Shown: positions 28,714-38,466 of the stretch, piece after piece | Layout of the letters: every line of letters begins with the position of its first letter | Numbering within the stretch: the first letter of the stretch is position 1 | Source of the DNA: an uncultured Planctomycetaceae bacterium | GTDB taxonomy: Bacteria; Planctomycetota; Planctomycetia; Gemmatales; Gemmataceae | DNA length: 54,498 nt | Direction of reading: 5' to 3' | Assembly: GCA_903960945.1 (NCBI GenBank) | Contig: CAJCCR010000311.1 | Span: 1-54,498, forward strand | Program-made: the position numbers and the translations under genes | Notes under the pieces: generated by a model | What the model was told of the DNA's origin: nothing | Database searches by the model: none | Seen by the model: the letters and a program-made list of their open reading frames with translations, nothing else

Positions 28714-30879
28714 ATGTCTACCGCTATTAATGCCACATGCCCTGGGTGTAAAAAAGTTCTTAAGGTTCCTACCCAGTGGGTCAACCAAGTTATTCGCTGT
28801 AAATTTTGCAACATGGCTATGCAAATAAAGCCTAATATTCCGCAACCTCAATCCGGTGCAAAAGCAAATCCAACCCAGCAAGGTCCTCAATCTGCGGGTA
28901 ATGTTCCCCAAACACCTTCTGCAGCAGGTCGTAATGGCGTTCCACCTTTGCCCGCGGTTCCGCCAATACCTACGAGCCATGCGGGCGCCAAATCGGTAAC
29001 CAATCAATTTGGATTAACCGATGTAAATTACAATCCTTCGTATTCATCGAAGTATCGAAAAAAGAAAGTAAACTGGATTATTCCCGTGGTTGTCATGTTG
29101 TTTATGGGAATTCTAGGCGTTGTTCTGGTGATGGCATTGCCGTATCTCAAGGATAAATTAAAAGATAAAGACGGAGAAATGGCCGCCGTTAATGGAGACG
29201 GAAAATCTAAAGGCGGTGATAAAAATGACCCCGCTAAAGATGCAGAAAACGGTAAAGCTGCGGGGAAAAACAGAAAGAATAATCCTGCTGTTGGCGGTTC
29301 AAATGCACCCTTCCCCAGAAGGGCCTTGGTTGTAAGCATTCATAATTATCTTTATGCCAATCCAACCCAGTATGGTTTGATGGTGCAAGGTATGAAAAAT
29401 ATTCCAGCTATCACTAAATATCTAACAAACCAAATGAGGGTACCGCAAAACCAAATTATGCACCTCAGTGATGCTGCCAAAGATAATCCTGCTCCACCTA
29501 CGAAATCTGTGGTTGAAAGTACAATTACGGACTTTTTAAAATCATCCCGAAAACAGGACCATCTGATGTTGGTGTTTGTGGGGCATGCTATTGAGAATGA
29601 TGGCCAGGTTTACCTCGCACCTATTGAAGGTGACCTTACCGATCCCGCCAGCCTCATTCCCCTGGCATGGCTTTATAAAGAACTTGATAGTTGTGTTGCG
29701 CATCAGAAGATTTTGGTTCTAGATGTTTGCAGATTTAGCCCAACCATTGGTGTTGAACGACCAGGCGGCCAACCAATGAGCGCCAAAATGGAGGAAATCA
29801 TCAAGGTTGTTCCTGCAGGCCTTCAGGTTATTACTGCTTGTTCTGCCGAACAGCGTTCCATGGAAACAGATGGCGAGCCATTGGGGGTGTTTTTGGATGG
29901 TTTTGTTGATGCTTTGCAAAAAGGTGTTCAGGGGCAGATACAAAAGCATGGCGATAATATTCCGATTGATAAACTTTTTGAGGCCACTGTGAAAAATGTT
30001 GAAGTGCTTGCAGTGGAACAAAAATTTAAGCAAACTCCTAAAATGTATGGTGCGTTTAAAGATAATGGCGCTGAGTTTGATCCTGCAGAACCAATGCCCC
30101 CAAAGCTTGCAATTACGGGATTAAAGCCTGTTAATAAGGAAGGTCTTGCACTTGTTAAATCTGTGCTCGAAGAAATTGGGACACCCCCAGTAAAAGCTTC
30201 AGAAATAGATAATTCAATTCGTTTGGAATATCTACCCCCGATTGCGGATCAGATTATTAAGGAATATGCAAAAGTTGATGGTCCTGAAACGGACTTGCAA
30301 AAAAATGTTAAAAAAGCTCGGGTTGAACTTTGGGTTATTTCATCTTTGCCTGCTCCCGCTGATATTAAAATGGAAGTGGATGAAAAACGAAAAATCGCCA
30401 AAGTGAACTTAAATGTTCTCAAAGATGGTTACCGGGCACCAGCCAATGAACTTACCTTTAAGACGGGTATTGAAAATGACGAGAAAGATGTTGCTCGTAT
30501 GTTCGTGAACTTACAGGATGCTCTTGATGATTTAAAGAAAAGTGAAGAAATGAAAGATGCTGAAAGCAAGCGTTGGCAGGCAAATTATGATTTTATACGA
30601 GCACGATTGGAAGCCCAAATCGCCTATCTCTACGAATACCAATCAATGCTTGGACAAATGCGTAAAGAACTCCCAGCAATGGATCCCAAAATTCATGGGG
30701 GCTGGAAATTAGCTGCAACAGCAAAACTGCAAGGGGATAGTGCAGGTAAAAAACTTGCAAAAGAATCTACCAAAACCATGGAATCATTGGTGAAGAGTGC
30801 CGCAGGCAGCCCTTGGGAAGTGCTAGCCAAGCGTGAGAAATTCACCACTTTAGGGCTTGAATGGCAGGCAGCAAAATAG
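28714..30879 (+). CDS. membrane-anchored Zn-ribbon / caspase-like (peptidase C14-type) protein with an uncharacterised C-terminal domain
   Basis: Four-Cys ribbon CPGC...CKFC (nt 28738-28809), a Pro/Gln-rich linker, and one TM (aa 120-143). A caspase-like core follows: LMLVFVGHAIENDGQVYLAPIEGD (His291, nt 29584-29586) and ILVLDVCRFSP (Cys339, nt 29728-29730). The last roughly 270 aa form a helical tail. Confidence 0.7.
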   Translation: MSTAINATCPGCKKVLKVPTQWVNQVIRCKFCNMAMQIKPNIPQPQSGAKANPTQQGPQSAGNVPQTPSAAGRNGVPPLPAVPPIPTSHAGAKSVTNQFGLTDVNYNPSYSSKYRKKKVNWIIPVVVMLFMGILGVVLVMALPYLKDKLKDKDGEMAAVNGDGKSKGGDKNDPAKDAENGKAAGKNRKNNPAVGGSNAPFPRRALVVSIHNYLYANPTQYGLMVQGMKNIPAITKYLTNQMRVPQNQIMHLSDAAKDNPAPPTKSVVESTITDFLKSSRKQDHLMLVFVGHAIENDGQVYLAPIEGDLTDPASLIPLAWLYKELDSCVAHQKILVLDVCRFSPTIGVERPGGQPMSAKMEEIIKVVPAGLQVITACSAEQRSMETDGEPLGVFLDGFVDALQKGVQGQIQKHGDNIPIDKLFEATVKNVEVLAVEQKFKQTPKMYGAFKDNGAEFDPAEPMPPKLAITGLKPVNKEGLALVKSVLEEIGTPPVKASEIDNSIRLEYLPPIADQIIKEYAKVDGPETDLQKNVKKARVELWVISSLPAPADIKMEVDEKRKIAKVNLNVLKDGYRAPANELTFKTGIENDEKDVARMFVNLQDALDDLKKSEEMKDAESKRWQANYDFIRARLEAQIAYLYEYQSMLGQMRKELPAMDPKIHGGWKLAATAKLQGDSAGKKLAKESTKTMESLVKSAAGSPWEVLAKREKFTTLGLEWQAAK

Positions 30880-30883
30880 TTCT

Positions 30884-33800
30884 TTAAACTGACTTATAAT
30901 CTTGGTTTAGCTCTGATCTTTCTGGGGTTTCCTGCCATCGTTTGATTGTGTCAAATGGAATTCTGTTTGGAGCGTTACCCACAATATCGGGTTCAACCCC
31001 TGCATAATAAAGAGGCCAAACATACAGGTTATTTGCAGATCGATCCCATCCGTCCGACCAATCTTGCCAAGTTAATGGTTGTCTGCCAAACAAAAGCCTT
31101 TCGAAATCAAGAGTTTCGAGGTTGCAGGAGTTTTCTGCCCGATTAATTTGGAGTTTTGGTTGGGTCTCACCACTATTAATTGGCACAAGAATAGTGCTTT
31201 GTTTTTCTGAAAAGAGTACAAGGTTTCCTCTATATATTTTCCAATCTGTGACCCAGCTTGGCAGGTTACTGCTGACCTGTTCTTTGGAAATTTCAATTCC
31301 AGCAAACTTGTACAATCCTGCAATTCCTAAACTTAGGCACCTGTTCTGCTGTTCGTTCAATGCTAGGGTTCCACCCGGTTTGGATACACTTCCCATGAGC
31401 ATTCCATCGATCAATTCCAGAGATATTTTGAAGGAAGCGTAACCGTTATCATCCATGCCCGTCATTTCTGCTTCGATGCGATTAATCCCAAGCGATATTT
31501 CTGAAACTCGCAGTGGCCTAACAAAAGATTTGTTGTTTTGCTGCATAGGAATAAGAAGATCCCGTTCAATAAAGCGCGCTAGTCTTTCCTTGATGGTTTG
31601 TAAATCAAGCCTTAGCGTTCTTGCTTTGCGCCAATCGCTTCTTGTCACTGCATCTTGTTCTGCTTTTCTTAGTTTCATGAAAAGCTTGGGGATGGTTCCG
31701 GAGTGAAAACCTAATTTTAGAAGCTGGGGAATAGTCTCGCCGTGCGTTCCTATTGCCATCGGGCGAAGTGATTGGGGCCTATTAGCTCGATAAAGCCCCC
31801 AGTTTTCTTTAGTTTCCCAGAAAAGAAACCCGAATAAATTGGGTGTTAGCCAAATGGTTGTACCGAAGAACAAATTTGAAAGTACATCGCCGATAAAAGG
31901 CGAAAAAAATTGGACGATTTCTGGAGTGAGCGGGATGATGATGGGGTAAGTGAATTTTGCTGCAACCGAAGAAATAGGGAATTTGATCGGGTTGATTCCT
32001 GGTTCAATTAAAACGACGGTATAAAAGCGCAGAAAAAATGCGACAGGCGACCAGAGTAATCCTAAAACCCCTCGTAGTGCCATCTGCCATGGTTTGGCAC
32101 GCCCCCTTAGCCTTAGCCAATCGTTGACCCATTGCAGGACAAACTCAAGCCCCTCGATGGTTTTCTTGAAACTTTGGACCATGATGGTGAAGAGGATAGA
32201 AATCAATCCATCTTGGATAAGCTTGCCTAAAGTGAGCATGCTCGAAATTGCAAATTCGGAAAGTAATCGTCCAGGCCTTGAGTTAAGTAGTAAGGTGAAC
32301 CCGATGAATAGAACAATTTCGCCTACGTGGTATGGGTAGGATTTAGGCAACCAGATGGCGATGGCTTCCGTGAATAAAAGGGGTTTGAGTATCAGAGAAT
32401 AAATTATTTGTACTGGCAGGCTTTTCCAGATTAATAAGAATGGATTCCATGTAAGAAGGGTTGAAGGGATTTTGTAAAAAATAAATTTGGCTGTTTTCCA
32501 GAAAATTAAAAGGCAATCAACTACAAAAGTTCTGAACGAATGACTGTTGATGACGGCAAAAAAGAATATACCAAGAGTTACAAAGGTTAGATTTCTAATT
32601 AAATCAGGAATACGATCGCCTGTAATTTTATCACAAATTAAATCTGCAGATTCGATTAGTAAAAAAGAGCCACCAAAGGGAAGCGTAAGGAATTTAGTTA
32701 TGGTTCTTCCCGTTGCGGTGCCGAAGTTTAAAGCGGTGGATTTTTCGAGCCAGCGGAGATAGAAATCGCTTCGTCTATACACGCCGTCTAACTGCGAAGA
32801 AAGATTTTCATCCAAGGTAAGAAGCGCATCACCCTTGAAAAATGATGCAGCATCTCTGATATCTTCAAGCTTAAGGTGATTTCTGGAAATCATATCGCGA
32901 AGCTCGGAGTAATTGAGATATCCCTGTTCGATAATGCGGTCGAGGAATTCTTCAACTAACCTTCTTCGGGCGATTTCGCCAAAGGCACCTTCACCTTTCA
33001 AGCCAACGGATTGCAAATTATTTTCAATGATTGGTCGAATTTCGTCTCGAAGCAGTTTCTCGTTTTGTTTCCATACTAATTGAAGAAGCGTTTCGAGTTT
33101 TTTGCGGTCTGCGAATGCAAGTCGGGTTGTGATAGCATTCAAACTGGCTTCTCTAAGCCTTTGGTGGATTTTTATTAGTCTTTGAAAACGGAGCGGGCGT
33201 TTCATTGGTTTTTTTCCCAACGATATCGCCCAGGTAAAAACATCGATCCGATATATTTCCTGCTCGTAATCTTCGCATGCACTTTGTAGTTCGGTAAGCA
33301 ACCGGGCTTCGACAGGGGAAGAACCCTGATCCGCTTTATCTAGCAGTGGAAGAAGCGCAGATTCCCAGTCTTGGAAATCGCTTGAGTTGAAATTTAGAGC
33401 AGCTTGAAGTCTTTTGACCAGTTTGCGGATTTCTTTGTGTGCTTTTTCGATGGTGCTCGAAGATAATTCCGCAGGGGCGACCCGATTTGCTTGAGTCCAT
33501 AATATTGCAGATACCGTAGCGTTATTTAGGGAGGATTCTTTCTCTGCCTGTTCAGAAAGCCTTTTAAAGTATTCGCTGGATTCTTCTGCATGAGTTTCTG
33601 GAGTAGGGTGAGGGTTTTGGGTTCCAGGTATTCGTGTTTCTTGAAAAATAATGTCTTCTGCAACATCATTTCTAATAATTGAAAGTAACGATTCATAGTC
33701 TTTGATGGATGGGAAATAGTTTGCTAACAAGTTTTCTGAAAAGCGATAGAGTTCTGCAAATGATGCTGCGAACGAAATATATTTGTCTGCGATATCTTGT

Positions 33801-34273
33801 TCAGGAAAAATCTTGTGTTCTTGTTCTAGCACCATTAACGCTTCAGAAAAAACGGTTCGACCTATAGTCTTGATTTTTTTTTCAACTGCGTCGTCAGATA
33901 GAAATCCATTTTCTTTGAGTTCGATGAATTTTAATTTGACCTCGGCGTGAAACAATCTTCGCCAGTACAGGGTGTTGCGTTCCTCAATATTGAACTTCCC
34001 TGGCATTTCTCCTTCAACTTTTGCAAGGAGTAATATCTTGCCAAATGGCAGTGACCCGATTTCTAATTCGAATTCAAGTTCCTTTGATAAAGAATTGATG
34101 GTTTCAAAATCTGTCCAAATAGAATCAATGCTGGAAAACTGGCTTGATATCAAGCCTAGGATTGCTGGAAGTTTGCGTTGGTGTAAAACAACTTTATCCA
34201 CGACTTTTCTTGGAACCAATACGAGTCGTGGTTCAATATTCTTTAATTCGATTTCGATAGTGTTTCGGTACAT
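30884..34273 (-). CDS. 1129-aa orphan polytopic membrane protein (helical N-domain, about 8-10 TM core, Trp-rich C-domain)
   Basis: Uninterrupted ORF from ATG 34273 with coding-like composition throughout. The hydrophobic core spans about aa 520-825 (nt 31799-32716). I recognise no motif from a known family. Confidence 0.75.
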   Translation of the reverse strand: MYRNTIEIELKNIEPRLVLVPRKVVDKVVLHQRKLPAILGLISSQFSSIDSIWTDFETINSLSKELEFELEIGSLPFGKILLLAKVEGEMPGKFNIEERNTLYWRRLFHAEVKLKFIELKENGFLSDDAVEKKIKTIGRTVFSEALMVLEQEHKIFPEQDIADKYISFAASFAELYRFSENLLANYFPSIKDYESLLSIIRNDVAEDIIFQETRIPGTQNPHPTPETHAEESSEYFKRLSEQAEKESSLNNATVSAILWTQANRVAPAELSSSTIEKAHKEIRKLVKRLQAALNFNSSDFQDWESALLPLLDKADQGSSPVEARLLTELQSACEDYEQEIYRIDVFTWAISLGKKPMKRPLRFQRLIKIHQRLREASLNAITTRLAFADRKKLETLLQLVWKQNEKLLRDEIRPIIENNLQSVGLKGEGAFGEIARRRLVEEFLDRIIEQGYLNYSELRDMISRNHLKLEDIRDAASFFKGDALLTLDENLSSQLDGVYRRSDFYLRWLEKSTALNFGTATGRTITKFLTLPFGGSFLLIESADLICDKITGDRIPDLIRNLTFVTLGIFFFAVINSHSFRTFVVDCLLIFWKTAKFIFYKIPSTLLTWNPFLLIWKSLPVQIIYSLILKPLLFTEAIAIWLPKSYPYHVGEIVLFIGFTLLLNSRPGRLLSEFAISSMLTLGKLIQDGLISILFTIMVQSFKKTIEGLEFVLQWVNDWLRLRGRAKPWQMALRGVLGLLWSPVAFFLRFYTVVLIEPGINPIKFPISSVAAKFTYPIIIPLTPEIVQFFSPFIGDVLSNLFFGTTIWLTPNLFGFLFWETKENWGLYRANRPQSLRPMAIGTHGETIPQLLKLGFHSGTIPKLFMKLRKAEQDAVTRSDWRKARTLRLDLQTIKERLARFIERDLLIPMQQNNKSFVRPLRVSEISLGINRIEAEMTGMDDNGYASFKISLELIDGMLMGSVSKPGGTLALNEQQNRCLSLGIAGLYKFAGIEISKEQVSSNLPSWVTDWKIYRGNLVLFSEKQSTILVPINSGETQPKLQINRAENSCNLETLDFERLLFGRQPLTWQDWSDGWDRSANNLYVWPLYYAGVEPDIVGNAPNRIPFDTIKRWQETPERSELNQDYKSV

Positions 34274-34426
34274 GGTTATCTACAATTAAAAATTTACCTA
34301 ATGCCAATATAAGAACAGGAATTCAAACGATTTTCGAGAATTCTTTTGAATATTTGTTTTAAAATTGATTTCTAAATTACAATAAGGTTGGGTTATAGGT
34401 TTAATCACTAAAATTACGGGTCATTT

Positions 34427-35845
34427 ATGAATATTTCAGAACTTCCCTCCAATTTAAAACAGCTTAAAGCTTCAGATTGGAAGTCAAAGCCAGTTAAGGA
34501 AGAAATAAGGTCTAATCTTCTTAAGGCGCTTAAAAATAATCTGCCTTTGTTTTCTGGGATCATTGGCTACGAAAATACTGTTTTGCCTTCTTTGCAAATC
34601 GCCCTTCTTGCAAGCCATGATATTCTTTTTCTAGGAGAAAAAGGCCAGGCGAAAAGTAGGCTCATGCGGGCTTTGATCCAATTCCTAGACGAATTTATTC
34701 CTTTTATTGATCACCCTTCCATCCCTGTTCATGAAGACCCATATCACCCAATTACCACCGTAGGCAAAAATTTTCTTGCCCAGCATTCTGATGATCAAGT
34801 TCCTATTGGGTGGTGGAAACGGGAAGATCGTTACGCAGAAAGGTTGGCCCCAGGTACAAAATTCGCTGATATTATTGGTGAAATCGATCCAGGCAAGTTG
34901 GTTTCTGGGGTAAGCATGGCAAATGAAGATGCATTGCATTTTGGGCTTATCCCGAGAATGCATCGTGGTATTTTTGCTATGAACGAAATTCCAGAATTAG
35001 ATGAATTGGTGCAGGTTGGTTTGTTTAATATTTTAGAGGAGCGCGATGTACAAATCCGCGGTTATCCCGTTAAATTTGATCTCGATATTTTTGTTCTTTT
35101 TTCCGCAAATCCTTCCACTTACAACCGCAGTGGTAAAGTGATTCCTCAATTAAAAGACCGTATAGGGTCTCTTATACAAACTCATTACCCCCTTGATAGG
35201 GATGGTGGGATTGAAATCATGGAGCAAGAATCAGGGAATGTAGAAGACAAAAATTTTCCTGTTGCTGTTCCTAGATTCATGAAGGAAATTGTTGAACAAA
35301 TCAGCAGGTCTGCACGAAAATCGAAGTTTATTGATCAGCAGTCCGGTGTAAGTGCCAGATTTTCAATTGCTAATTATAAAACCATGATCGCCAGTGCAAG
35401 GCGTAGAGGCGTTTGCCTTCAAGAAGCGTCTGCTGTTCCCAGAATAAGCGATCTATCACATCTTGCTTCATCCTCACTAGGGAAGTTGGAATTAGATTTG
35501 ATGGGTAGTCATCAAATGACAGAAAAGCAGATACTTGATTCGTTAATTGCTGATGCTGTAAAAATGGTTTTTCAGGAGTATGTAGATGCAGCAGGGTTAG
35601 AGGAGATATCACAAGTATTTGGTAAAGGTGTTAAGATAGAAGTAGGAGATATGCTTCCATCTTCGCATTATGCGGAAAGAATTAAAGTGATACCCAAGGC
35701 TTGGGAGAAGACCTTTGAAGTAAACCCAAGTGAAAATGATGCAGTGCGAGCGTCGTGCATTGAATTTGTATTAGCAGGTTTGCACGCATCGGACAAAATT
35801 TCCCGCTCTTCAAAACATGGCCGGATTAGTTACGAATTACGCTAA
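34427..35845 (+). CDS. ChlI/BchI-like AAA+ ATPase (orphan subfamily, VWA-partnered)
   Basis: [11 protein letters not shown]...[18 protein letters not shown] (Walker A, nt 34634-34657) and [14 protein letters not shown] (Walker-B-like, nt 34970-34987). This aligns by eye with the Mg-chelatase ChlI pattern. 472 aa. Confidence 0.78.
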
Positions 35846-35858
35846 TAGTGAGGGATTG

Positions 35859-37559
35859 ATGGCAACTGAACCAAAGTTTGGTGGCATTGTTCATACTTAT
35901 CAAAAGTATGATCCAGTAAGTTTTCCGAACCCTAGTTCGGATGCTCCAGATCTTGTTTCGCCTGCTTTTGAACACATGATGCATTATGGTTCCCTTAAAA
36001 GATTAACCGAGGAGCAGCTTGCCCGTGCTGTGCAAATAGATCCTAGTCAAATCCAAGGGTTTGGGCCCACCATGGAGCGGTTGATGGAGGTCCTTGAAGC
36101 CCGGAAGCGAAAAATTCTTGAAACTTTTGAAACTGAATCCGTGAGCAAGGAAGCTAAAGACGAATACGAAAACTCTTATCGCAATTTAAAGCCCCCGAAG
36201 AATATCGCAGAGGAGTTCAAGAAAGCAACTAAGGCTGAGCAATTAAATCAAATCGAAGATCTTTGGTATAAAGCGGGCGGTGAGAAATCACCTTTTGGAA
36301 ATCAGTTGCTTGGCGTTTTTGAATCTTTAGCCATTAAATACCAAGTGGATGAGCTTGCTTCAAAATATGAATTCACGGGCACCCAATCTCTTGATGTTCC
36401 CAAGGCTTTAGAGGTAAAAGCGGAGCTTGAAAAAATTGATGAGCTTTTAAAGCAGTTAAAAGATGCCATGGAGAATGCTCAGATTGGTGTCATTAATATG
36501 GAGGATCTTTCCCAGTTTTTAGAATCAGGCGACATGGATCAATTGAATGCCTTGCAAAGGCAGATTCAAGAAATGATTAAAGCCATGCAGGAAAATCAAG
36601 GTATCGACTCCGATGGGAAAAATTTAAAGCTGACCCCCAAGGCATATAAAATCTTTCAATCCAAACTCCTTGGTAAGATTTTTGACCAGCTTAAAGCTTC
36701 TCGTTCAGGTAGGCATATGGTAGGGGTTTCTGGCGAAGGAGCTGTTGAAACACAAAAAACCAAACCATTTGAATTTGGTGATTCACTTGCTAGCCTTGAT
36801 ATTCAATCTTCCATTGTAAATATGTTGGTTCGATCGGGTGGAAAGATGCCCGAATATCTTCATGCTGGGGATTTGGTGGTTAACAAAACTAAAAATAATC
36901 CCAAGTGTGCTACGGTTGTGTTGCTCGATATGTCTGGGTCAATGCGATACGATGGTCAGTATGTGAATGTGAAACGAATGGGCTTGGCGTTGGATGGCTT
37001 GATTCGTTCTGAATATCCGGGTGATAGGCTTCACTTTGTAGAGATGTACACTTTTGCCAAGGTTCGGAGCAGTTCAGAAATAGTATCTTTGATGCCCAAG
37101 CCTGTGACGGTTTTTGATCCGGTGGTAAGGCTAAAGGCAGATATGTCGGATCCTGACATTACTGAAATGGATATACCGCCTCACTTCACCAATATTCAGC
37201 ATGGATTGCAGCAGGCCCGCACTCTTTTGGCTAATTCCGATACCTGCAACAAGCAGGTTATGATCGTTACCGATGGTTTACCTACAGCACATTTTGAAGG
37301 GAAGGATCTGTATCTTTTTTATCCTCCCGACCCAAGAACCGAGGCTGCGACATTGAAGGAAGCGATGCTTTGTGCGCGCGAAGGGATTACGGTAAATGTT
37401 TTTCTTATGTCGTCTTGGAATCAATCCACGGAAGATGTTCAGTTTGCGTATAAGATGGCTCAAAGTTCCAAAGGAAGAGTTATATTTGTCGCAGGTAAGG
37501 ATCTCGATCGCTATGTGATTTGGGATTACCTTTCTCGAAGAAAAACCATTTTAGGTTGA
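35859..37559 (+). CDS. VWA-domain protein (helical N-half, C-terminal von Willebrand A domain with MIDAS)
   Basis: MIDAS DMSGS in VVLLDMSGSM (nt 36927-36941), later ...VMIVTDGLPTA. ATG 35859 is preceded by GAGGG and lies 13 nt after the AAA+ stop. The overlapping start at 35817 is rejected. Confidence 0.82.
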   Translation: MATEPKFGGIVHTYQKYDPVSFPNPSSDAPDLVSPAFEHMMHYGSLKRLTEEQLARAVQIDPSQIQGFGPTMERLMEVLEARKRKILETFETESVSKEAKDEYENSYRNLKPPKNIAEEFKKATKAEQLNQIEDLWYKAGGEKSPFGNQLLGVFESLAIKYQVDELASKYEFTGTQSLDVPKALEVKAELEKIDELLKQLKDAMENAQIGVINMEDLSQFLESGDMDQLNALQRQIQEMIKAMQENQGIDSDGKNLKLTPKAYKIFQSKLLGKIFDQLKASRSGRHMVGVSGEGAVETQKTKPFEFGDSLASLDIQSSIVNMLVRSGGKMPEYLHAGDLVVNKTKNNPKCATVVLLDMSGSMRYDGQYVNVKRMGLALDGLIRSEYPGDRLHFVEMYTFAKVRSSSEIVSLMPKPVTVFDPVVRLKADMSDPDITEMDIPPHFTNIQHGLQQARTLLANSDTCNKQVMIVTDGLPTAHFEGKDLYLFYPPDPRTEAATLKEAMLCAREGITVNVFLMSSWNQSTEDVQFAYKMAQSSKGRVIFVAGKDLDRYVIWDYLSRRKTILG

Positions 37560-37626
37560 TAACTTAGAAGTTGCTTCCTTTAGATCATCGATTAGCATAC
37601 TACGATGATTATAAATGGAGGCTTGG

Positions 37627-38466
37627 ATGACACGAAAATTGCTAAGTGATTTTGATATCGCACGATATCATGAAGATGGTTTCGTTATTTCAAAATCTTT
37701 TTTTGATCCCCAAGAAATTGAACTTTTAAGCAAATCTGCACGGGAAGATCACGAACTTGATAAGCATTCGTTTGGAAGGCGCGATGGCGAAGGCGGCACC
37801 GTCAAACTTTCTCTTTGGAATCATCCTGGAGATGGTATTTATGGCATGTTCGCCCGATGTGAGCGCATGGTTCGTTCGGTTGAAAAAATTCTTGAGGGCG
37901 AGGCTTATCATTATCATTCTAAAATGATTATGAAGGATGCGAAAATTGGTGGCGCTTGGGCTTGGCACCAAGATTATGGTTATTGGTACCAAAATCATGT
38001 CCTTCGTCCGCTGCTTACAAGTGTTAGTATTGCTGTAGATCCTGCCACTCGAGAAAATGGCTGTTTGCAAGTTATTGCGGGGTCTCATCATTGTGGGCGA
38101 ATTAACCATGTGCTGTCAGGTGATCAGGCTGGGGCAGACATGGAACGAGTCAATGATATCTTAAAAAGAATGCCATTGGTTTATTGTGTGATGGAGCCTG
38201 GTGATGCGATATTTTTTCATCCCAATTTGTTGCATCGATCGGATCAGAACAATTCCGAAAACCCAAGATGGTCTATGATTTGCTGCTATAACGCTGCGAG
38301 AAATAATCCTGCAAGGGAATCCCACCATCCCTCTTATACTCCTTTGCATGTGGTTTCAGATGCAAAGATAAAAGAAGTTGGGATCAAGCGTTTTGCAGAT
38401 GATGCAACGGATGTTGCATGGTTAAGTGACTCTAAGGATAAAAGCGCAAAGAAGCTTGAATCCTAG
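37627..38466 (+). CDS. PhyH-family Fe(II)/2-oxoglutarate dioxygenase
   Basis: WHQDYGYW (HxD facial-triad region) and FFHPNLLHRSDQN. ATG 37627 has GGAGG 5 nt upstream. Confidence 0.82.
   Translation: MTRKLLSDFDIARYHEDGFVISKSFFDPQEIELLSKSAREDHELDKHSFGRRDGEGGTVKLSLWNHPGDGIYGMFARCERMVRSVEKILEGEAYHYHSKMIMKDAKIGGAWAWHQDYGYWYQNHVLRPLLTSVSIAVDPATRENGCLQVIAGSHHCGRINHVLSGDQAGADMERVNDILKRMPLVYCVMEPGDAIFFHPNLLHRSDQNNSENPRWSMICCYNAARNNPARESHHPSYTPLHVVSDAKIKEVGIKRFADDATDVAWLSDSKDKSAKKLES

Follow-up and report, generated by a model that had tools for sequence, protein, structure and literature searches.

The longest open reading frame (ORF) in a 54,498-nt stretch of DNA from an uncultured Planctomycetaceae bacterium (GenBank contig CAJCCR010000311.1; the whole stretch is hereafter called the window) encodes a 1129-amino acid (aa) polytopic membrane protein (positions 30884..34273, minus strand), which sequence comparison places in a large, as yet unnamed membrane-protein family, whose matches are mostly from Planctomycetota where they are named. 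No curated family or solved fold matches this protein. Among the explanations of its role considered here, a membrane-embedded signalling or sensor module is the best reading, with a probability of roughly 0.4. According to this proposal, the protein would be a membrane-embedded signal-input module, in which a conserved interfacial polar site would recognise or bind a cue from the membrane or envelope (such as a lipid head group, an ion or stress) and two large cytoplasmic domains would relay its state to soluble partners. In several lineages, the output would be hard-wired by an intact Hanks-type Ser/Thr kinase fused at either end; the window's protein would work with a kinase from a separate gene or with another effector, and the gene would act alone, not in an operon with a neighbouring gene pair encoding an AAA+ ATPase and a VWA protein. 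This reading fits best because kinases are repeatedly fused at either end, the N-terminal domain is separable and conservation centres on an interfacial polar site. Planctomycetes have unusual membranes and an expanded repertoire of eukaryote-like kinases, whose inputs are mostly unknown, and a module with approximately 1,800 sequence clusters and repeated kinase fusion may serve as a concrete and testable candidate for such an input. The family is a considerable gap in what is known of a phylum that interests cell biologists, with a concrete link to Ser/Thr signalling and a function that we infer. The novelty lies at the level of family and fold, and the mechanism is not part of the claim.

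First, homology searches revealed the size of the family. Of the 82 homologues returned by a word-index search, most were near full length, and the named ones belonged to Gemmataceae, Tundrisphaera, Fuerstiella and other Planctomycetota. An exhaustive phmmer search yielded 1,783 clusters (50% identity) at E<=1e-3 and 920 at E<=1e-30. Two conserved peptide patterns, built from motifs within aa 811-870, identified at least 575 confirmed matching stretches in a collection of species-representative genomes; among the 80 of these loci that were listed, the labels were mostly Gemmatales/Gemmataceae, Pirellulales, Planctomycetaceae or Thermoguttaceae. These numbers contradict the original prediction, made from the letters of the window, that the protein was an orphan. 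The family was present in 28 of 41 genomes of relatives, the larger of which often carried two or three copies. With matches in only 17 of 301 genomes evenly sampled across the phylum, the family appears to be widespread but patchy; many complete genomes of the same class gave no match (3/16 in set f4 did). In other classes, members were 1245-1463 aa long (G048, G111, G105, G146, G077, L103-L105, L108 and L109), and in the first five of these the match to the family profile began only at position ~240-285; the differing N-terminal regions had no Pfam match. We found no very long fused forms (>1977 aa). Short stand-alone forms of the conserved core were rejected, as the short matches came mostly from contigs of a few kb or were labelled partial, and none had a functional name. 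Seven family-bearing contigs (L027, L029, L035, L044, L045, L075 and L090) were labelled as, for example, Candidatus Kuenenia, Alcaligenaceae, Bacteroidales or Proteobacteria, and these labels are probably taxonomic bin mislabels. The genes in L027 and L029 were 91-95% identical to the window's gene, so that the Kuenenia label looks wrong.

Second, searches for a known family or fold gave no significant match. The best hmmscan hits of the protein in Pfam-A 2025 (E = 0.19) and NCBIfam 20.0 (E = 0.098) were far below the cut-offs, and PADLOC 2.0 gave none. When 33 family members were scanned singly, no domain family occurred in more than two of them. The family profile matched no PDB sequence, including no channel; in the ESM Atlas, the whole protein retrieved unnamed Planctomycetota clusters only and the core had no usable match to a named cluster. 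Structure prediction with AlphaFold2 (33-sequence alignment) gave a full-length model with a mean predicted local distance difference test score (pLDDT) of 80.7 and a predicted TM-score of 0.72, and a model of the core alone (aa 505-915) with a pLDDT of 88.5, in which 291 of 411 residues reached at least 90. Foldseek found nothing at E<=1e-3 for the whole model, and neither Foldseek nor VIA-align found a significant fold match for the whole model or for the membrane core alone. Our literature searches found no description of the family. Thus, the earlier statement that no family could be recognised is upheld with Pfam, NCBIfam, PADLOC, the PDB sequence profile, Foldseek and VIA-align, and no confident match to a transporter, channel or enzyme emerged. 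The membrane core may be a new membrane fold. We regard as a tentative possibility the more specific idea that the family is the founding example of an undescribed membrane fold, a sensor or channel with both ends inside (N-in/C-in), i.e. a receptor or gated module that would be coupled to eukaryote-like Ser/Thr phosphorylation and repeatedly fused to kinases ("chanzyme"-like or receptor-kinase), with the interfacial polar site governing the cytoplasmic domains. The family merits definition as a new domain family (a new domain of unknown function or Pfam entry) and structure determination.

Third, domain fusions pointed to signalling. Five of the 150 best representatives contained a Pkinase domain (PF00069) and were ~350-400 aa longer than the others. 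The kinase was N-terminal in four of them (P0088, P0095, P0101 and P0120) and C-terminal in P0085. All five kinases retained the glycine loop and DFG, and four had HRD[LV]KPAN, a pattern that missed P0095; the linker between kinase and module had no hydrophobic segment in any of the five. In a FastTree phylogeny of 81 members, fused proteins stood beside unfused ones in at least three to four separate places, all within the major clade that includes the window's protein. Another member, P0038 (1469 aa), covered 47% of the query, matching its N-terminal half but nothing beyond, and continued into a WD40 propeller (aa 577-911) in place of the usual membrane core, which shows that the N-terminal domain is a separable module. 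The window's protein has no Pkinase domain.

Several observations weigh against the signalling reading. Only ~3% of the best representatives (5/150) were fused to a kinase, and the tree was interpreted without support values. Kinase genes lay within 8 kb of unfused members at 9 of 85 loci, which is roughly the level that we estimated as background. Planctomycetes have ~100 kinases per genome in hundreds of architectures (PMC11032199), and such promiscuous kinase fusion weakens the inference of signalling. The invariant His, Glu, Ser and Lys residues described below are equally compatible with a catalytic site. The topology was derived from parity, charge and indels, not from coordinates or experiment.

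The conservation pattern, read from per-column identity in blocks and from the conserved residues of alignment A1 and the 84-sequence alignment A2, placed the most constrained residues at the membrane interface. The four first transmembrane (TM) segments, TM1-4, were the least conserved part of the core (column identity 0.32-0.41), whereas the juxtamembrane segment preceding TM1 (aa 441-540) reached 0.59-0.72; within the last ~80 residues of the cytoplasmic domain before the core (aa 441-519), a highly conserved sequence, D445, R459, D460, K468, G481, D482, G497 and Y499 were invariant. A second peak (aa 741-780) corresponded to a tight helix-turn-helix tip at aa 749-773 (31955..32029, minus strand, the strand of all features of this protein given below), R749...IE757-P-x-x-N761-P-x-K764-x-P766...K773, in which R749, E757, N761, K764 and K773 were invariant or nearly so. 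In A1, E757, P758, P762, K764, P766 and K773 were invariant, with conservation of at least 90% for R749 and N761; in A2, E757, P758, P762, K764 and K773 were still invariant. The third peak (aa 801-870, up to 0.78) contained FGFLxWExKENW, ANR, GxHGET and PGFHSGTxPK. Its main part, aa 811-870 (31664..31843), was the most conserved stretch of the protein (column identity 0.6-0.78), begins right behind the last membrane helix, includes the most conserved loop (aa 831-859) and has a conserved Arg after PGFHSGTxPK; F816, W819, E820, N824, G842, E846, G855, S858, G859, P862 and R869 were invariant, and H844, G845 and H857 at least 90% conserved. Residues 835-860 had a pLDDT of 53-66 in the isolated core model, lower than in the full-length context, and this difference suggests that the segment packs against another domain or a partner.

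This clustering of invariant polar and ionisable residues at the interface (the IEPxxNPIK tip, WExKEN, GxHGET and GFHSGT), in a stretch more conserved than the rest of the protein and in a family limited to a phylum with an unusual envelope, could also be read as a membrane-embedded enzyme at the cytoplasmic face. Such an enzyme would act on an anionic, lipid-linked or membrane-bound substrate, with R749, K764 and K773 binding it and H844, E846, H857 and S858 as catalytic residues, and would make or modify a planctomycete-specific envelope component. We consider this unlikely, given that no enzyme family was matched by sequence or fold, that biosynthetic neighbours were not conserved and that the patchy distribution (17/301 evenly sampled genomes) is at odds with an essential envelope step. 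Moreover, the conserved segment 835-860 is of low confidence when modelled in isolation, and the two conserved clusters may lie on the same or on opposite sides of the membrane. A reading of GxHGET as an "RHGE"-type histidine phosphatase motif was dropped, the Arg being absent and no Pfam match being found.

Family-averaged hydropathy identified seven hydrophobic segments in the core (~525-547, 557-576, 619-639, 648-664, 728-757, 765-783 and 796-815). The sequences between and after them showed a positive-inside pattern: the amphipathic helices 577-618 and 665-727, and everything after 816 (the segment 816-915), were rich in K and R, whereas the exposed loop 552-556 was acidic and varied from 3 to 61 residues across the family, and two points in the exposed variable region 781-795 each accepted up to 14 inserted residues. 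On these sequence grounds, both termini of the module are predicted to be cytoplasmic (N-in/C-in), because the fused kinases need ATP and their linkers carry no hydrophobic segment. With both termini inside and seven hydrophobic segments, one segment should not span. Two arrangements are possible, either six helices that span while 765-783 enters and leaves the membrane at the outer face, or eight if the weakly hydrophobic, charged helix 690-712 spans as well. The 8-10 TM segments proposed originally are probably too many; charge and indel patterns fit six plus one re-entrant or short helix, and at most eight.

The six-helix arrangement recalls an ion channel, or a transporter, that is regulated by large domains in the cytoplasm. 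In such a protein, the re-entrant helix 765-783 would lie between the last two of six spanning helices, the WExKENW helix would be interfacial, a hairpin would serve oligomerisation and the kinase-fused members would be "chanzyme"-like. The cytoplasmic termini with one non-spanning segment, the variable loop 781-795 after the short helix 765-783, the long K/R-rich helices (860-912) that follow the core and the kinases fused at the termini are all consistent with this explanation, and the weak top rows of both Foldseek searches were mostly TRPM, TRPC, Kv and K2P (nearly all TRPM for the whole model). However, these rows were not significant (E at least 0.04, and 0.04-0.6 for the whole model; TM-score ~0.1), and the TRPM rows were lost on re-alignment; the Ion_trans and TRP Pfam models matched neither the query (E<=1) nor any of the 33 members (E<=0.1). 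No selectivity-filter-like motif was seen in the alignment consensus. The loop behind 765-783 is variable and takes 14-residue insertions, unlike a filter, the conserved EPxxNPIK precedes the short helix, and TM1-4 are the least conserved part of the core. For a transporter, the typical inverted or direct repeat was not found with hhalign (probability <=1.2% between sub-alignments of helix groups of the core). A channel or transporter is therefore a somewhat doubtful alternative to the sensor module.

The overall anatomy agreed well with what had been proposed for this ORF. The AlphaFold2 model bore out a polytopic membrane protein in three parts, with ~520 aa in a helical N-terminal half and ~300 aa each in a helical membrane core and a C-terminal region. 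The hydrophobic core assigned to nt 31799-32716 corresponds to aa 520-825 and coincides with the AlphaFold2 helices and the family-averaged hydropathy; the acidic linker placed at about aa 215-250 and the Trp-rich segment near the C terminus were both found, and the stated lack of a P-loop, peptidase motif or repeat was confirmed, with neither a Walker A nor an HExxH motif in the 1129-aa protein and no internal repeat in the membrane core.

From the N terminus, the AlphaFold2 secondary structure placed a helical subdomain after a small alpha/beta unit (aa 17-84); together (aa 1-213, 33635..34273), they were the least conserved part of the N-terminal half in the conservation blocks. A Pro/Glu-rich linker (aa 214-234, 33572..33634) is predicted to be disordered from its composition and a pLDDT below 50 at aa 224-233, and aa 215-250 hold seven D/E against three K/R. 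An all-helical, putatively cytoplasmic domain (aa 235-519, 32717..33571) leads to the membrane core, which the core model together with family hydropathy, charge and indels delimits at aa 520-830 (31784..32716). Behind the conserved stretch, two long K/R-rich helices (aa 860-912, 31538..31696) form a helical hairpin or a possible coiled coil, and a beta-rich alpha+beta domain (aa 916-1035, 31169..31528) contains seven strands and a helix at 974-991. The Trp-rich segment (aa 1067-1090, 31004..31075), predicted to be helical at aa 1069-1080, has a conserved WxxWxxxW, with W1069, W1072 and W1076 at least 90% conserved in the family. The tail (aa 1091-1129, 30887..31003) is poorly conserved (column identity 0.15-0.21) and mostly of low confidence (pLDDT <50 at aa 1090-1107 and 1116-1129).

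The large helical domains in the cytoplasm and the Trp-rich helix at the interface, in a family limited to a phylum with unusual membrane architecture (background in PMC8567305), might also suit a scaffold that supports or shapes the invaginated cytoplasmic membrane of planctomycetes and takes no part in signalling or catalysis. We consider this role improbable: invariant ionisable residues and Pro/Asn turn motifs would not be expected of a pure scaffold, the recurrent kinase fusion points elsewhere, and many complete genomes of the same class yielded no member.

Strong purifying selection acts along the whole ORF at 30884-34273, which is a real gene. It is complete (1129 aa plus stop) on the minus strand, starts with ATG (MYRNTIEIEL...) and, as the original prediction had noted, is the longest in the window, the runners-up having 980 and 923 aa. 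The same start was kept across orthologues. Congeneric genomes contained eight more full-length orthologues (75-97% identical) of the same start and length, and two additional ones that were partial or split. Pairwise ratios of nonsynonymous to synonymous substitution rates against congeneric orthologues were 0.05-0.10, with values as low in the N-terminal half as in the membrane core and the C-terminal part, which indicates a protein-coding gene and purifying selection along the whole length. Evidence for transcription was weakly positive. Parts of the ORF were covered by contigs from four metatranscriptomic studies (lake, river, estuary and marine), including near-identical contigs with one mismatch in 266-272 nt (X16) and none in 131 nt (X19); these were Logan contigs of RNA runs, which do not give strand or level and in which DNA carry-over is possible. 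In one congeneric metagenome-assembled genome (MAG), the orthologue (L011, G003:C90:4169-9211) lay in two overlapping frames (aa 1-681 and 639-1129), and the adjacent AAA+ gene was split as well (aa 1-153 and 116-412). This double split looks more like assembly frameshift errors than two independent pseudogenes.

To one side of the gene, a 721-aa ORF (28714-30879, plus strand), which had no Pfam match at E<=1e-3, converges on it with stop codons 4 nt apart; to the other, a divergent AAA+/VWA pair is followed by a gene for a PhyH dioxygenase, and this is the context within the genus. Between the gene and the divergent AAA+ gene lies an AT-rich intergenic region of 153 nt (34274..34426), the presumed promoter region, in which no sigma-70-like consensus was found. 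The AAA+/VWA arrangement was kept in those genus loci whose flank extends that far (15 of 17). Among sister genera, L028 (49% identical orthologue) retained both the 721-aa gene and the pair, whereas L030 (51% identical), from a Baikal-deep Gemmataceae MAG, retained the 721-aa gene, PhyH, M20, Nth, PyrK, RluB and DUF480 and lacked the pair, with PhyH directly flanking the big gene. When L030:7024-8001 is compared with positions 34274-38466 of the window, PhyH abuts the upstream region of the big gene; between these two, the pair thus behaves like a cassette that has been inserted or deleted. The 721-aa gene is the only neighbour whose linkage outlasts the pair (genus, L028 and L030).

The divergent arrangement across the 153-nt gap, kept in 15 of 17 genus loci and in L028, could indicate that the protein is a membrane partner or substrate of the ChlI/MoxR-like AAA+ ATPase and the VWA protein (and PhyH), forming one module with them. 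Synteny largely refutes this very improbable reading. Besides the missing pair in L030, none of 83 more distant loci had a homologue of the AAA+, VWA or 721-aa gene within ~8 kb, and PhyH occurred in L051 only. ORFs clustered from 85 loci of other genera included no neighbour family in more than nine loci, and the commonest neighbours were generic planctomycete families (Pkinase-WD40, PSD1/PSCyt2, DUF1501, ABC ATPase and TPR). A module of AAA+, VWA, PhyH and the 721-aa protein was accordingly rejected on the evidence of L030 and the distant loci. The divergent promoter region proposed originally is real as an AT-rich gap, but the functional link did not survive: the promoter region common to the gene and the pair is, judging from gene order, a local accident confined to the genus and L028. 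As far as synteny can tell, the gene appears to be functionally autonomous. Two subgroups showed arrangements of their own: in Gemmata/Frigoriglobus-like loci (L043, L046, L048, L050 and L054), FolD (tetrahydrofolate dehydrogenase/cyclohydrolase) lay 8-107 nt upstream on the same strand, and in L022, L069, L073 and L078, an ABC ATPase gene lay 1-32 nt upstream. Both are lineage-specific and not family-wide.

Finally, we compared the protein with three known systems. Like MoxR/ChlI-like AAA+ and VWA modules with membrane partners (e.g. Bat/BatA-D-type operons), the window's gene stands head-to-head with an AAA+/VWA pair, but the co-occurrence fails beyond two sister genera and Pfam revealed no DUF58, BatA or VWA features in the protein. 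It shares with TRPM-type and other 6-TM tetrameric cation channels, which top both non-significant Foldseek lists, a cytoplasmic N-domain that is large and helical, followed by a helical membrane core, with an amphipathic helix behind the last TM segment and long C-terminal helices; TRPM7 also carries a kinase. The third comparison concerns membrane-spanning Hanks-type Ser/Thr kinases of Planctomycetota, which combine Pkinase, TM and accessory sensor domains. Odelgard et al. (2024, PMC11032199) report that most planctomycete Ser/Thr kinases are membrane proteins and that as many as 18 TM regions are predicted in some; as in these, some members of the family join an intact, putatively cytoplasmic Pkinase domain to a membrane module. 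In contrast, the window's protein and ~97% of the representatives have no kinase domain, and the family module, to which no Pfam model corresponds, appears to be a polytopic unit of ~1100 aa with both ends cytoplasmic rather than a single-pass anchor with periplasmic WD40 or TPR arrays.

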